A stretch of 40,284 nucleotides of DNA from Oligoflexia bacterium (GTDB lineage Bacteria; Bdellovibrionota; Bdellovibrionia; Bdellovibrionales; UBA1609). Shown here one piece after another: positions 12,749 through 36,763 of the stretch (position 1 is the first letter of the stretch; every line of letters starts with the position of its first letter). The notes beneath the pieces were generated by a model that saw only the letters and a list, made by a program, of their open reading frames with translations, ran no database searches and was not told the DNA's origin. Both the position numbers and the translations under genes were made by a program. The stretch is from assembly GCA_026914095.1 (NCBI GenBank), contig JAPPIY010000122.1:1-40284 (forward strand), read 5' to 3'.

Positions 12749-12958
12749 AAACATTAAGTTTAAAAGTTAAAGAATTAAAGCTAAAAAACTCAGACATGCG
12801 TTTTGCCACAAAGCGTCTGTTCCTTACAAGTTTTATTCATAAGATGTTCCTTGAATTTTTCAAATCATATTTACACTTAAAGAACCTTGGCAGACGCATT
12901 GTGGTCAAATCCGAACTCGTTTTTAGCTTTAATTCTTTAACTTTTAAACTTAATGTTT
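12749..12958. repeat. Long-hairpin element with 39-bp perfect terminal inverted repeats (type B)
   Basis: AAACATTAAGTTTAAAAGTTAAAGAATTAAAGCTAAAAA (12749-12787) is the exact reverse complement of 12920-12958. Inner inverted pair GCGTTTTGCCACAAAGCGTCTG / CAGACGCATTGTGGTCAAA. Confidence 0.9.
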
Positions 12959-13425: not shown

Positions 13426-13791
13426 TAAATACGCTCAAACTCTACAACAGTTCTGACTGTTGAACCGCAGATTTCATTATTATTTTTGGGATTCATGTAA
13501 AACAAAGCTTTATCACCCTGCGCTTTTTCCTACTGGCGAACTCAGGAAAAGACGGCTAATAAAGTTATTATTTTGGGAATTATATACATGACTCCTCAAA
13601 AAACTTTATTTTTAGCTTTAACTATTGAAAAACACTCTTTTTTTTCAAAGGAAACTTCAGATTTTCAAGTAAACTTCTGTCGGATAAAGGCAAGCTCTAA
13701 AGGCAGGATGCCCCTTTATTAAAAAGTGGAATCTTCCTTTGCAAAATCATAAGTTTTGACTCATTAGGTATATAATTCCCATTATTTTCAT
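13426..13791 (-). pseudogene. Decayed tandem paralog of the 13944..14477 gene
   Basis: The 3' remnant translates to ...AQGDKALFYMNPKNNNEICGSTVRTVVEFERI*, versus LLGDKLFFYSSSPDEGIYGFNCDSTARLIIEFDRI* in the live gene. The 5' remnant keeps AAGGAGA plus the ATG at 13791. The middle is lost and replaced by a TIR-bounded insert. An in-frame TAG lies upstream of the 3' remnant. Confidence 0.7.
13575..13780. repeat. About 206-bp insert with 13-bp perfect terminal inverted repeats (type C) inside the pseudogene
   Basis: GGGAATTATATAC at 13575-13587 and its exact complement GTATATAATTCCC at 13768-13780. Related GGRAWTATRTATTTA strings occur at 78-93, 1221-1236 and 33747-33764. Confidence 0.55.
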
Positions 13792-14621: not shown

Positions 14622-14776
14622 TAGACTGATCCTATTTGAAAGTTCAAGTTATAACTGGACTCCCGCGAAAGCGGGAGTGACAAGAAGCTTTGATGTTCAT
14701 ACAGGAAAGGAAACGCTGGACTCCCGCTTTCGCGGGAGTGACAGACAAGAGGAAAATTCAAACAAGCTTCAGTCTA
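14622..14776. repeat. MITE-like element, full copy with two hairpin cores
   Basis: TA|GACTGATCCTATTTGAAAGTTC ... GGAAAATTCAAACAAGCTTCAGTC|TA. Cores GGACTCCCGCGAAAGCGGGAGTGAC (14657) and GGACTCCCGCTTTCGCGGGAGTGAC (14718) lie 61 bp apart. Confidence 0.85.
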
Positions 14777-17405: not shown

Positions 17406-17598
17406 GTGATTTTTGTTCAAAAGCCGGCCAATAAACTTGAAAATTCAGTCCTATGCTTTGCCACAAAGCCTGCCCTCGTGCAAAGAGAGGGCCGAACTTG
17501 TTTTGAGAATTTATTTGCCTGAACCTTCTTTTAAGCTGTTTTTTTGCAAATATTATTCCATTAAAATCGTAAATTCACAAAACCTTTCAATAGTTTAG
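17406..17598. repeat. Repeat cassette X downstream of mreB, paralogous to 27878-28172
   Basis: Shares GTGATTTTTGTTCAAAAGC...CTTG(C)AAA, a TTTGCCACAAAGC hairpin half, TGCAAATATTATTCC, and the tail AAATTCACAAAACCTTTCAATAGTTTAG (17571-17598). Confidence 0.75.
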
Positions 17599-17615
17599 AG
17601 CTTTCTCGGCGCTGA

Positions 17616-27365: not shown

Positions 27366-27779
27366 TTATCTTTTGTTGTCTAAAGCTTGATTGGCTAAGG
27401 CGTCGGCCCCTTTGTTTTGCTCTCTGGGAATATGTTGAAACTCCGCTTGAGGAATTTGTTTTAAAAAGCTTTGGCACTCCATGAAAAGAGTTTTTATGTT
27501 TTGGCTCTTCACTTTGTATTTTTTTTGCAGTTGGCGGATTAAAAGCTCGCTGTCTGAAAACAAAGTCAGCTCTTGAATTTTATTTTGAACCGCCAGCTCA
27601 AAAGCTCGGATAACCGCTTTGTATTCGGCAAAGTTGTTGGTGTTTTTGTCCTCTAAATAAGAGGATTCCTCATAAATCAAGTTTTTTTTGGAATCAAAAA
27701 CCTGTAGCCCTAAGGCGCAGGGGCCTGGGTTGCCTCGGCTGGCTCCGTCCGTATAAATAAAGACTCGTTTTGGCCACAT
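27366..27779 (-). CDS. rnhA: Ribonuclease HI
   Basis: IYTDGASRGNPG (Asp), NNFAEY (Glu), SDSELL (Asp), NKGADALAN (Asp). Its stop lies 1 nt from the astA start. Confidence 0.9.
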   Translation of the reverse strand: MWPKRVFIYTDGASRGNPGPCALGLQVFDSKKNLIYEESSYLEDKNTNNFAEYKAVIRAFELAVQNKIQELTLFSDSELLIRQLQKKYKVKSQNIKTLFMECQSFLKQIPQAEFQHIPREQNKGADALANQALDNKR

Positions 27780-27877
27780 AACAATAAAGCTAACAAAAGA
27801 ATTTTATTTAAACAATATCTCTATAAAAAAAACTTTATCTTTGAGGATTTTTACGAGTCGGCGATGAAAAAATTTGC

Positions 27878-28172
27878 TTTATTGTTTAAATGTGATTTTT
27901 GTTCAAAAGCTTGCAAATCAGCTTGCAAAGTGAGTTTGGTTTTTATCACAATATTGTAAATGTTCAGTCATTCCCGCGAAAGCGGGAATCTCCAGACAAA
28001 ACTTCAAAAGTTCAAACCCGATCCGCATCACTTGCTTTCTTGTAAATACTATCCTTTTATACTGATCGTATTTGAAAACTCAGCGCTACGCCTTCTTCAA
28101 AAACTTAAAACCGGAATTTTCAAACACGATCGGTATAAGATCATAAATTCACAAATCATTTCAATAGTTTAG
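27878..28172. repeat. Repeat cassette Y upstream of ileS, with a nested 76-bp mini-MITE at 28060-28135
   Basis: Module TTTATTGTTTAAATGTGATTTTTGTTCAAAAGCTTGCAAATCAGCTTGCAAA (27878-27929). Hairpin GTCATTCCCGCGAAAGCGGGAATCTCC (27967-27993). Mini-MITE TA|TACTGATCGTATTTGAAAACTC...TTTTCAAACACGATCGGTA|TA. Tail AAATTCACAAATCATTTCAATAGTTTAG (28145-28172). Confidence 0.8.
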
Positions 28173-28362
28173 GACTTCTTCAGAACCGACTGATTAGTTT
28201 TGTATTTATTACAAATCATTTGGACTGCGCTTCCTTAAATTTCAGTCCTAAAAGGCTTTCCTGACACTTCTGAGCTAAGGCTCTTAAAGCGCCAATGATC
28301 CTACCGCAAGACTTTTAAAAAAGGCGTTGTTCCTTTTTGTTTTTTCAGATATAAAAAGTCCT

Positions 28363-31104
28363 ATGAGCGCCGATTCCTTTCGCGACAGCCTTCTTCTCCC
28401 TAAGACAGATTTTCCTATGAAAGCTCAGCTTTCAAAAAAAGAGCCGGAAATTGTAAAGCAGTGGAGAGAAAAAAAGCTTTATGAAAAAATTTTAGAAAAA
28501 AGAAAATCCGCAGAGTTGTTTTTTATGCCGGATGGCCCTCCTTATGCCAATGGAGCGATTCATTTAGGCCATGTTTTAAATAAAATTTTGAAAGACATTG
28601 TCATTAAATATAAAAACTTAAGTGGAAAAAAAGCCCCTTTTATTCCTTCTTGGGACTGCCATGGTTTGCCGATAGAGTTAGAGGCTCTTAAAAAACAAGA
28701 TCAAACAGAAGAGCTTTCTCCTAAAAAATTAAGGGAAGAGTGCCGCAAAACGGCTCGTTTTTGGATAGAAAAACAAAAAGAAAGTTTTGAAAGGCTGGGA
28801 GTCTTGGCCGATTGGGGTCAGCCTCTTTTAACAATGAATCCTCATTATACAGCGGAAGAAGTGAGGGCTTTTGCCAAGCTTGTCCGAAAGGGCTTGATTT
28901 TTTCTGGAACAAAACCGGTCTTTTGGTGTTTTAAATTACAGACGGCTTTGGCTTTTTCAGAAGCGGAATACAGAGAGCATAAAAGCCCCTCTATTTATGT
29001 CAAATTTAATTTAACCTCTTCTTCTCTTAAAAAATTAAATTCTCCTCAGCCGGTTTCGGCGGTGATATGGACGACCACTCCCTGGACTTTGCCGGCGAAT
29101 ACAGCAATAGGACTTCATCCGGATTTAGACTACGGTTTGTTTGCTGGTGAGACGGAATCTTATTTGCTGGCAATGGCCTTGGCCGATTCTTTTTTTAAGG
29201 AGACAGATCAAACTCCTTTTAAACTGGAAAAAACTTTTAAAGGGAAAGACTTGGAATTTTTAACTTACTGTCATCCTTTTTTAAAGAGAGAAAGCCCCTT
29301 TGTTTTAGGGGATCATGTGAGTCAAGAGACCGGCACAGGCTTAGTGCATACCGCTCCTGGCCACGGGCTGGAGGATTATGCGGTGGGGCAAAAATACAAA
29401 CTCCCCAGCCCCTGTCCCGTGGATGAAAGAGGGCATTTCACGGATGAAGCTTCTAAAAATTTGCAAGGGCTTTTTATTTTTAAAGGCAATTCTGTGATAC
29501 TTGAGATGTTAAAAAAGACCGGACATTTGCTGGCTCATAAAACAATCACTCACAGCTATCCTTACAATCCCCGCTCGGATTCTCCTCTGATTTACCGTTT
29601 AACGGCTCAGTGGTTTTTATCTTTGGATAAAAAAGATAACGGAGTTCGGGACTTAGCTTTAAAAGCCTGCGATAAAGAGATTCACTTTGTCCCCTCTTGG
29701 GGAAAGGCTCGTTTGACGGCCATGATTCAAGCCAGCCCGGACTGGTGTTTGAGCCGGCAGAGGGTTTGGGGAGTTCCCTTAGTGGTTTTTTACTGCAAAA
29801 AATGCTCCACAGCCTTATTGGATCCCTCAGTGATAGAAGAAATAGCGGATGAAATGCAAAACACAGAAGAGGGGATAGAGTATTATTTTGAAAGAGAGGC
29901 CAAAGAGCTTTTGCCAGATCAAAGCCAATGTGAAAACTGCGGACACAGGGAATTTGAAAAGGGAGAGGATATTTTAGATGTGTGGTTTGACAGCGGAGTT
30001 CAGCATGAGGTTTTTTCACAGCAAAAAGAAATAAAGACGCCTATGGATCTTTTTTTAGAGGGAAGCGATCAGCACAGAGGCTGGTTTCAAACCAGTTTAT
30101 TGTCTTCTCTGGCTTTAAACTCTCAAACTCCCTTTAAGACTCTGCTCACTCATGGCTTTGTGAATGACAACAAAGGGTATAAAATGAGCAAAAGCAAAGG
30201 AAATGTTTTAAACCCCGCTCAGCTCATTGAAAAAAACGGAGCGGAAATTTTAAGAATTTGGACGGCCAGTGAAAATTTTGCTTTTGATGTGAAAGCGGGA
30301 GAAGAGAATTTTAAAAGAGTGGTTGAAAGCTACAGGCGGTTCCGAAACAGCTTTCGCTTTGTCTTGGGAAATTTAAATGATTTTCAAGCCAAAGAGTTAA
30401 TAGAGTTTAAACAATTAAGGGCTGTGGATCAATGGATGTTGGGACAGCTCAATGAGCTTATTGAAGAAAGCGCAAAGGCTTATGAAGAGTATGCCTTTTA
30501 TAAAGTCTATCAACAGCTCAATCATTTTTTCACAGTTCAAATGTCCGCCTTTTATTTAGACATTATAAAAGATCGTCTTTACACTTTTCCGCAAAAAAGC
30601 CTTGAGAGAAGACAAGCGCAAACCGTTCTCTATTATCTCATGGATCAGCTGTTGCCGCTTATGGCTCCTATCACCAGTTTTTTATCAGAAGAAGCCTACA
30701 CTTATTTTAATAGGGAAAAAAAAGACAGTGTTTTTTTAGAGGATTTTCCGAAAAAAAATCCAGAATGGGATCATCCCGAAGCGCGGGGGCTGTTCTCCAA
30801 GCTTTTTCCTTTAAGAGAGGAGTTAAACAAAAAATTGGAAGTTTTGAGGCAAAAAGGGAGCCTGGGATCCAACTTGCAGGCCTTCGCCAGCCTTGTGTTG
30901 AAAAAGGATTTTATCAGTCCGGTTTTAAGCCGCTCTGAGCAGTTGGAGTTTTTTTCTGTCTCACAGATAGAAATTCAAGAGGGAGAGGAAACTCTATTAA
31001 AGGCGGGCCTGGCGCAGGGAGAAAAATGCCAGCGCTGTTGGTTTATCAGCGAGCATTTGAATGAGCAGAGGATTTGCCCTAAATGTGTTAAAAACTTGTC
31101 TTAA
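28363..31104 (+). CDS. ileS: Isoleucine--tRNA ligase
   Basis: HIGH motif PYANGAIHLGH, KMSKS motif YKMSKSKGN, the CP1 editing region, and a C-terminal zinc knuckle CQRCW...CPKC. Start set at the ATG at 28363 (MSADSFRDSLLLPKTDFPM). Confidence 0.96.
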   Translation: MSADSFRDSLLLPKTDFPMKAQLSKKEPEIVKQWREKKLYEKILEKRKSAELFFMPDGPPYANGAIHLGHVLNKILKDIVIKYKNLSGKKAPFIPSWDCHGLPIELEALKKQDQTEELSPKKLREECRKTARFWIEKQKESFERLGVLADWGQPLLTMNPHYTAEEVRAFAKLVRKGLIFSGTKPVFWCFKLQTALAFSEAEYREHKSPSIYVKFNLTSSSLKKLNSPQPVSAVIWTTTPWTLPANTAIGLHPDLDYGLFAGETESYLLAMALADSFFKETDQTPFKLEKTFKGKDLEFLTYCHPFLKRESPFVLGDHVSQETGTGLVHTAPGHGLEDYAVGQKYKLPSPCPVDERGHFTDEASKNLQGLFIFKGNSVILEMLKKTGHLLAHKTITHSYPYNPRSDSPLIYRLTAQWFLSLDKKDNGVRDLALKACDKEIHFVPSWGKARLTAMIQASPDWCLSRQRVWGVPLVVFYCKKCSTALLDPSVIEEIADEMQNTEEGIEYYFEREAKELLPDQSQCENCGHREFEKGEDILDVWFDSGVQHEVFSQQKEIKTPMDLFLEGSDQHRGWFQTSLLSSLALNSQTPFKTLLTHGFVNDNKGYKMSKSKGNVLNPAQLIEKNGAEILRIWTASENFAFDVKAGEENFKRVVESYRRFRNSFRFVLGNLNDFQAKELIEFKQLRAVDQWMLGQLNELIEESAKAYEEYAFYKVYQQLNHFFTVQMSAFYLDIIKDRLYTFPQKSLERRQAQTVLYYLMDQLLPLMAPITSFLSEEAYTYFNREKKDSVFLEDFPKKNPEWDHPEARGLFSKLFPLREELNKKLEVLRQKGSLGSNLQAFASLVLKKDFISPVLSRSEQLEFFSVSQIEIQEGEETLLKAGLAQGEKCQRCWFISEHLNEQRICPKCVKNLS

Positions 31105-36554: not shown

Positions 36555-36763
36555 TATACTGATCTTGTTTAAGATTTGGAGGCTCTTTTGAAAGATGACA
36601 ACAAGAGATTTAAGAGTAAAAATTTTCAATTCCAAGACTTAAAATTCAGTCCTGCGTTTTGCCACAAAACGGTCTTTGGCCGCCTTGCGCTCAAAGCCTG
36701 CCCTCGCGAAAGCGGGGGCGGGAATCTAGTTAAAGCCAGAGAATTCACAAACAGTGGCCTATA
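36555..36763. repeat. Composite MITE-like element
   Basis: TA|TACTGATCTTGTTTAAGATTT ... AAAATTCAGTCCTGCGTTTTGCCACAAAACGG ... GCCTGCCCTCGCGAAAGCGGGGGCGGGAATC ... GAATTCACAAACAGTGGCCTA|TA. Confidence 0.7.

Follow-up and report, generated by a model that had tools for sequence, protein, structure and literature searches.

A 76-bp MITE copy between duplicated TA dinucleotides in an uncultured Bdellovibrionales genome, and its probable IS630-family origin

ISY100, a member of the IS630 family of insertion sequences (IS), inserts almost exclusively at TA and duplicates this dinucleotide (PMC2170065). The precedent for a bacterial miniature element of such descent is RUP of S. pneumoniae together with IS630-Spn1 (PMC2229807; after Oggioni and Claverys 1999). 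RUP aside, no bacterial repeat element is listed with an IS of matching termini in PMC2229807. MITEs which derive from IS630 and duplicate TA are well known, and the case presented here is an ordinary one of the textbook type. A search of the literature returned no paper in which MITEs are linked with Bdellovibrionales.

The window is a stretch of 40,284 nucleotides, contig C73 of an Oligoflexia genome (G000; assembly of 2.01 Mb in 341 contigs, 87% complete). With a probability of about 0.88 the segment 28060-28135 of the window represents a single copy of a non-autonomous transposon (MITE) that is abundant and derives from an IS of the IS630 family. The copy interrupts a repeated cassette module, called Y, whose paralog X elsewhere in the window is uninterrupted. 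On re-reading, the coordinates and sequences which a preliminary description had given for the element, for the flanking TAs and for X were found to be accurate (Table 1).

Table 1. Features of the filled site Y and of its empty paralog X in the window
Feature	Position	Strand	Basis or remark
76-bp hairpin-less MITE copy (insertion in Y)	28060..28135	.	termini with 0 mismatches to the pattern; fold with terminal stem
Left inverted terminus of the 76-bp copy	28060-28078		
Right inverted terminus of the 76-bp copy	28117-28135		
Duplicated TA target, left copy	28058..28059	.	single-gap optimum of 78 nt; one TA in empty paralogs
Duplicated TA target, right copy	28136..28137	.	single-gap alignment
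Cassette right module, left of the insertion (TTCTTGTAAATACTATCCTTT)	28035..28057	+	ungapped with C48, C275 and C119 after removal of element and one TA
Cassette right module, right of the insertion (AGATCATAAATTCACAAATCATTTCAATAGTTTAGGACTTCTTCAGAACCGACT)	28138..28185	+	common to at least 15 copies up to ...CAGNGCCGACT
Degenerate, hairpin-bearing partial MITE, right end TTCAAACCCGATCCGCA	27961..28030	+	directly upstream of the cassette module
Uninterrupted paralogous cassette module X	17536..17611	+	pairwise and single-gap alignments; unoccupied TA at 17562-17563

The repeat family and a related IS630 element

The 19-nt termini of the 76-bp element are TACTGATCGTATTTGAAAA on the left and, read as the reverse complement, TACCGATCGTGTTTGAAAA on the right; they are complementary in 17 of 19 positions. 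Folded as single-stranded DNA the element forms a terminal stem only (-13.5 kcal/mol, z = -4.85). No GC hairpin appears in this fold, in agreement with the preliminary description, and pairing runs through the termini alone. Its designation of the copy as 'TIR-only' is overstated, because a non-palindromic interior of 38 nt is present. The nearest full-length relative, a copy of 64 bp at C20:2384-2447, is 78% identical and has interior sequence in common with the window copy. The element is non-coding; the sole open reading frame which spans the element (27960-28172, 70 aa) is a product of the ORF listing alone.

The terminus pattern has 5 matches in the window, where 0.04 are expected; in the genome the 19-nt pattern has 169 at up to 2 mismatches, compared with 0 for the reversed pattern used as a control. 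Genome-wide, TA is located directly before 278 of 313 termini; with a looser 17-nt pattern the count is 507 of 627. For comparison, 7.1% of all dinucleotides are TA, and a TA stands before 11.3% of the TAC triplets. The genome-wide tabulation of flanks proposed at the outset therefore favors TA: it precedes 81-89% of 313-627 termini, as against 11% for any TAC. When 141 cleanly paired copies are examined, TA is present on both sides in 116, on one side in 23 and on neither side in 2; in the window it is found at about 16 of 20 credible ends. The initial assertion that all other copies are bracketed by TA is nearly correct, as it holds for these 116 pairs and for most window ends. At target positions -3 and -4, T is frequent and G and C are scarce, which points to a target that is AT-rich and roughly palindromic about the TA.

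Among 40 relatives, matches to the terminus pattern are numerous in just four genomes, all from this one genus, i.e., G000 (169), G002 (121), G001 (24) and G003 (24). The congener G001 (OZ241877.1, a Bdellovibrionales MAG) possesses eight identical elements of 1135 bp at different sites, each flanked by TA on both sides. The element has an open frame of 341 aa, 338 residues when counted from the first ATG. The encoded transposase carries the domains DDE_3 (98.6 bits), HTH_33, HTH_29 and HTH_23, and this DDE_3 plus HTH make-up assigns the element to the IS630 family. Its ends are near-identical to those of the MITE. The IS end adjoining the stop codon, TACTGGTCTTGTTTGAATTTTCAGG (the same end is also written TACTGGTCTTGTTTGAATTTTCAGGTTTCGAT), agrees in 23 of 25 bases with the MITE consensus TACTGATCCTGTTTGAATTTTCAGG, which was derived from 628 ends. 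The best single MITE copy agrees in 28 of 30 bases, and the match extends into the transposase gene, where it takes in the stop and the final codons. Exactly this is predicted if the MITE was derived from an IS by internal deletion. Position 6 of the terminus is A in 94% of MITE ends compared with G in the G001 IS. On account of this consistent difference the G001 element is a close relative of the MITE parent, not the parent itself.

An IS630 transposase with matching termini had been predicted from the window alone. The prediction came true in the congener and not in the present assembly, in which the DDE_3 HMM has 0 matches, tblastn with the G001 transposase reaches a best E-value of 0.24, and neither an IS630-family transposase nor a remnant was detected. 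In this fragmented assembly, with the given completeness and number of contigs, multi-copy insertion sequences may be unassembled. A search of public genome contigs for a closer autonomous partner returned only G001 itself, and the matches in metagenome contigs were at most 45% identical, none with matching termini. IS630-family elements of G009 and G017 were considered as partners and rejected: they are TA-flanked, but their termini are unrelated. Long terminus-to-terminus pairs in the present genome (0.8-2.2 kb) were discarded as well, being separate MITEs around ordinary genes; one such pair encloses the IS1595-family transposase gene described next.

Two side observations concern transposases. 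G017, which belongs to the same family but to a different genus, has an unusually heavy IS load with at least 72 DDE_3 matches in 3.1 Mb; the copies examined are TA-flanked and have termini TAGTGCTTCCG..., unrelated to the MITE. The only clear transposase seen in the present assembly is encoded by an IS1595-family gene (233 aa, DDE_Tnp_IS1595, 86 bits) at C13:4020-5108, between two separate MITE ends.

One may ask whether a transposase of a different family is responsible, either from an IS5 subgroup with short TA-containing duplications or, in a REP/BIME-type spread of hairpins, a RAYT. This would accommodate the missing IS630 transposase in this assembly, the REP-like GC hairpins in most copies, 22 of 69 hairpins being away from any terminus, and the IS1595-family transposase on C13. 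We consider it unlikely. The assembly has no Y1/RAYT match (Y1_Tnp), and there is one sub-threshold match to DDE_Tnp_1 only. A REP/BIME nature is at odds with the inverted termini and the TA duplication of the elements, and the 76-bp copy is devoid of any hairpin. The sole element found with matching termini belongs to the IS630 family, and the IS630-family elements of G009 and G017, their unrelated termini notwithstanding, are TA-flanked too. With respect to the gene on C13, IS1595 elements are known for longer duplications, and this family is not known for TA duplications. An IS630-type origin remains the preferred reading.

Filled and empty sites

X reads ...ATTATTCCAT-TA-AAATCGTAAATTCAC... 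with the junction TTCCAT-TA-AAATCG, i.e., it possesses one TA. The preliminary description had proposed that Y equals X plus the 76-bp element plus a duplicated TA, and that a gap located elsewhere in the alignment would speak against this. A pairwise MAFFT alignment of X and Y contains one gap of 78 columns at the predicted place. We then used a single-gap regime, in which gap opening is penalised enough to permit one insertion. The optimum for Y against X, C48 and C275 is 78 nt, i.e., 76 bp and one TA. Three placements of this gap are equivalent, 28058-28135, 28059-28136 and 28060-28137, and that is exactly what a TA duplication predicts. The modules of C119 and C129 are 1 and 3 nt shorter and the respective gaps increase to 79 and 81 nt.

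Two other alignments put the gap differently. A MAFFT run with seven sequences misplaced it because TTTTCAAACACGATCGGTATAA, the right end of the MITE, has a loose similarity to TTTGCAAATATTATTCCATTAA, the stretch of cassette immediately to the left of the target; this scoring artefact is remedied by the single-gap regime. When gaps were made cheap, a global alignment divided the insertion into two parts, as CTTAAAA was matched inside the element; the single-gap regime remedies this too. Both misplacements are artefacts. The 78-nt gap holds and the proposed composition of Y is correct; the boundaries of the insertion and the duplication of the TA are established.

None of the empty sites is an allele; all are paralogs, with identities of 75-93%. 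When the element and one TA are removed from Y, it aligns without gaps with C48 over 84 nt (84.5% identity) and with C275 over 28 nt (93% identity); C48 and C275 are better empty paralogs than X. One TA is present at the homologous point in the four closest empty copies, X, C48, C119 and C275. In none of the 14 other cassette copies is the element present at this point. An allelic empty site would read ...ATCCTTTTA joined straight to AGATCATAAAT..., with one TA; an exact search of metagenome contigs for this predicted allele gave no match.

We extended the search for empty sites to the whole genome. The flanks of every paired copy were joined by one TA and used as a query. This yielded nine filled loci with empty paralogs, and in seven of them (C10, C140, C341, C110, C272, C308 and the window copy) the alignments of the left and the right flank overlap by 2 bp. 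The locus C10:5914-6006 has 23 empty paralogs with a 2-bp overlap in all of them; the overlapped dinucleotide reads TA 11 times and TG 10 times. At C140 the overlapped dinucleotide is TA in 4 of 4 paralogs. C341 carries a MITE of 120 bp in another copy of the cassette, inserted at a different TA (CACAAA-TA-ATTTC). The C247 locus fits a 2-bp overlap after a neighbouring 1-nt indel is taken into account, and C104 is a true exception, without TA flanks and without a duplication. The early proposal of a TA target-site duplication of the IS630/Tc1-mariner type is thus sustained by the X/Y pair, by the closer copies C48, C275 and C119, and by the other filled and empty sets.

The search also touched on a second repeat family of at least 25 copies (GGGAATTATATAC...CATAAAGAGCCTTCAAACTAAGGAAATAAAAGAGTTTTGAGC...), comprising C10:5850-6070 of G000 and about 25 paralogs. 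It is related to the GGGAATTATATAC repeat at 13426-13791 of the window. One copy of this family contains a MITE of 92 bp at a TA.

Flank counts alone cannot tell a terminus from a duplicated target. The TA outside 81-89% of the termini would also be seen if it belonged to the element itself, which would then measure 80 bp, have the termini TATAC...GTATA and cause no target duplication. The comparison of filled and empty sites makes this very improbable. Upon removal of both TAs, Y falls short of X, C48 and C275 by 2 nt; the best single gap measures 78 nt and not 80; and the overlap in the seven filled and empty sets is 2 bp and not 0. In the case of ISY100 the flanking TAs were shown to be outside the excised element (PMC2170065). 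Finally, it is hardly credible that the ancestral cassette was filled and that X and the other copies lost the element precisely: one paralog pair gives no direction and recombination between the flanking TAs could in principle take the element out, but the element is missing here from all 14 other cassette copies, the cassette copy on C341 bears a different MITE at a different TA, and a single insertion in Y is by far more parsimonious than repeated precise loss via a 2-bp homology.

Size classes, hairpins and the host repeat

Hairpin-less forms of 64-76 bp flanked by TA are present at several loci in G000, G001, G002 and G003. Their lengths are 70 bp in G001, 69 bp in G002 and 72-73 bp in G003, and this is the form seen in the copies sampled from the three congeners. 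In total the MITEs fall into length groups of 36 bp, 64-76 bp, about 90 bp and 110-130 bp; GC hairpins are optional and come in one or two copies. Three TA-flanked copies of 36 bp consist of the two termini only (C84:3745-3780, C281:11514-11549 and C300:8698-8733). The copy on C84 is a perfect palindrome with private variants common to both arms, which suggests copying of one arm from the other.

The GC hairpin has the sequence ATTCCCGCGAAAGCGGGAAT and is located in the window, e.g., at 27970-27989, 2905-2924 and 14659-14678. G000, G001 and G004 possess this hairpin and G007 has a few copies of it; it is absent from G002 and G003, both of which have the termini. G004 has hairpins and almost no termini (2 pattern matches). 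In G000, 17 of 69 hairpins reside inside terminus pairs, 30 adjoin one terminus and 22 are set apart. This distribution of its own across the genus, together with the hairpin-less forms, identifies the GC hairpin as an accessory module. The earlier notion that the window copy has lost a hairpin 'core' was abandoned, since hairpin-less forms exist in congeners and the hairpin is distributed independently. The short hairpin-less form is the likelier candidate for the basic vehicle. That the termini are sufficient for movement can reasonably be inferred, and the hairpin-less copies at multiple loci strengthen this point. Because the distributions of hairpin and termini are decoupled, one can speculate that the genus-wide ancestral vehicle was an element of about 70 bp without a hairpin, which here repeatedly captured an independent REP-like hairpin; we regard this as a tentative possibility that falls short of even odds. 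If it were true, chimeric MITEs would be spreading a structured RNA/DNA module by IS630-type transposition.

Larger composites of about 202-219 bp, bounded by MITE termini, were noticed in G002 (L058, L059 and L063) and in G003 (L065). Each encloses a different long palindromic module (...TTTTGCCACAGAGCGACT...). The latter module is found alone in the window at about 17440-17470, 12778-12814 and 36634-36670.

The cassette is a repeat in its own right, with the consensus ...TTCTTGCAAATATTATCCCTTAAAATCATAAATTCACAAATAATTTCAATAGGTTAGGACTTTTTCAGCGCCGACT and at least 15 copies in the genome. For its right module the consensus is TTGCAAATATTATCCCTTAAAATCATAAATTCACAAATAATTTCAATAGGTTAGGACTTTTTCAGCGCCGACT; copies are located in the window at 28035-28185 and 17536-17611, and on the contigs C119, C28, C137, C84, C129, C48, C275, C267, C292, C288, C222 and C128. 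The arrangement in which a MITE end is followed by the module recurs in the empty paralog C48. As five of the at least 15 cassette copies are at contig ends, the right module is probably part of a longer repeat of high identity that breaks the assembly. Rfam and tRNA scans of the window gave no match; the cassette is not a known RNA. A scan of 27700-28400 for promoters and terminators returned no site.

The 76-bp copy resides in a divergent spacer, with an RNase H-like gene (minus strand, 27366-27779) on one side and ileS on the other. This spacer (27780-28363) is about 580 bp long compared with about 105 bp in the closest congener, G004. There the flanking genes are 73-77% identical and the repeat block, about 480 bp in all, is missing entirely, so that G004 cannot resolve the insertion junction and the block looks dispensable. 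With respect to ileS the comparison with G004 suggests that the ATG at 28363 is the start codon instead of the TTG at 28327 picked by the ORF tool.

Proposed mechanism and comparison with known systems

We infer that a transposase of the IS630 type moved the 76-bp copy. A DDE transposase of this type, supplied in trans, would recognise the inverted termini of roughly 19-25 bp (TACYGATCSTRTTTGAA...), excise the element and transfer its 3' ends to a TA, at positions staggered by 2 bp. The subsequent repair would then duplicate the TA. The target in the present case would have been the TA in ...CCTT-TA-AAATCA..., within the repeated spacer module upstream of ileS. Among full-length copies the median identity to the nearest neighbour is 82%, and the highest value is 95.7%. 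These identities and the failure to find a transposase suggest a family that has by now become largely fossil in the present genome, allowing for an IS which may have escaped assembly.

The transposition class is now fixed for a repeat family which fills the spacers of a small, uncultured genome of the Bdellovibrionales type. The boundaries of the elements can be set to the base, so that insertions and host sequence can be separated when genes, starts and stops are annotated. Further, with the intact 1135-bp IS630-family element of the congener a concrete candidate for the enzyme can be named.

The closest analogue of the present MITE is RUP, as summarised in PMC2229807. Both are non-coding, high-copy MITEs of about 100 bp, and their termini resemble those of an IS630-family element. 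Both insert at TA with duplication of the TA, often inside other repeats. They differ in sequence and host, which are unrelated, the present one being an uncultured Bdellovibrionales/Oligoflexia lineage. Unlike with RUP, the matching IS of the present MITE was found in a congener only, and the family is modular, with optional GC hairpins and several size classes.

The Correia/NEMIS elements of Neisseria are likewise TA-flanked and bounded by TIRs; they measure about 100-155 bp, occur in at least two size classes which differ by an internal block, and were also delimited through filled and empty sites (PMC2229807). In contrast to Correia/NEMIS, a candidate IS630 relative exists for the present MITE, and the termini of the two have no sequence similarity.

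The chemistry proposed here, i.e., a TA target, strand transfer at 2-bp staggered positions and duplication of the TA, is that of ISY100/IS630 (PMC2170065). The G001 element belongs to the same size class as ISY100 (1135 bp), and shares with it a single transposase of similar domain make-up. ISY100 is autonomous and was studied in vitro, whereas the present element is non-autonomous and its mobility is deduced from sequence only. The Rickettsia palindromic elements (RPE), finally, resemble the present MITE as small palindromic repeats which fill the spacers of a small genome; RPE are at times also located in frame inside genes. For RPE the target duplication is marked as unknown, the terminal TA is variable and no IS partner is reported (PMC2229807); for the present MITE, on the other hand, a TA duplication and an IS630 relative are both documented.
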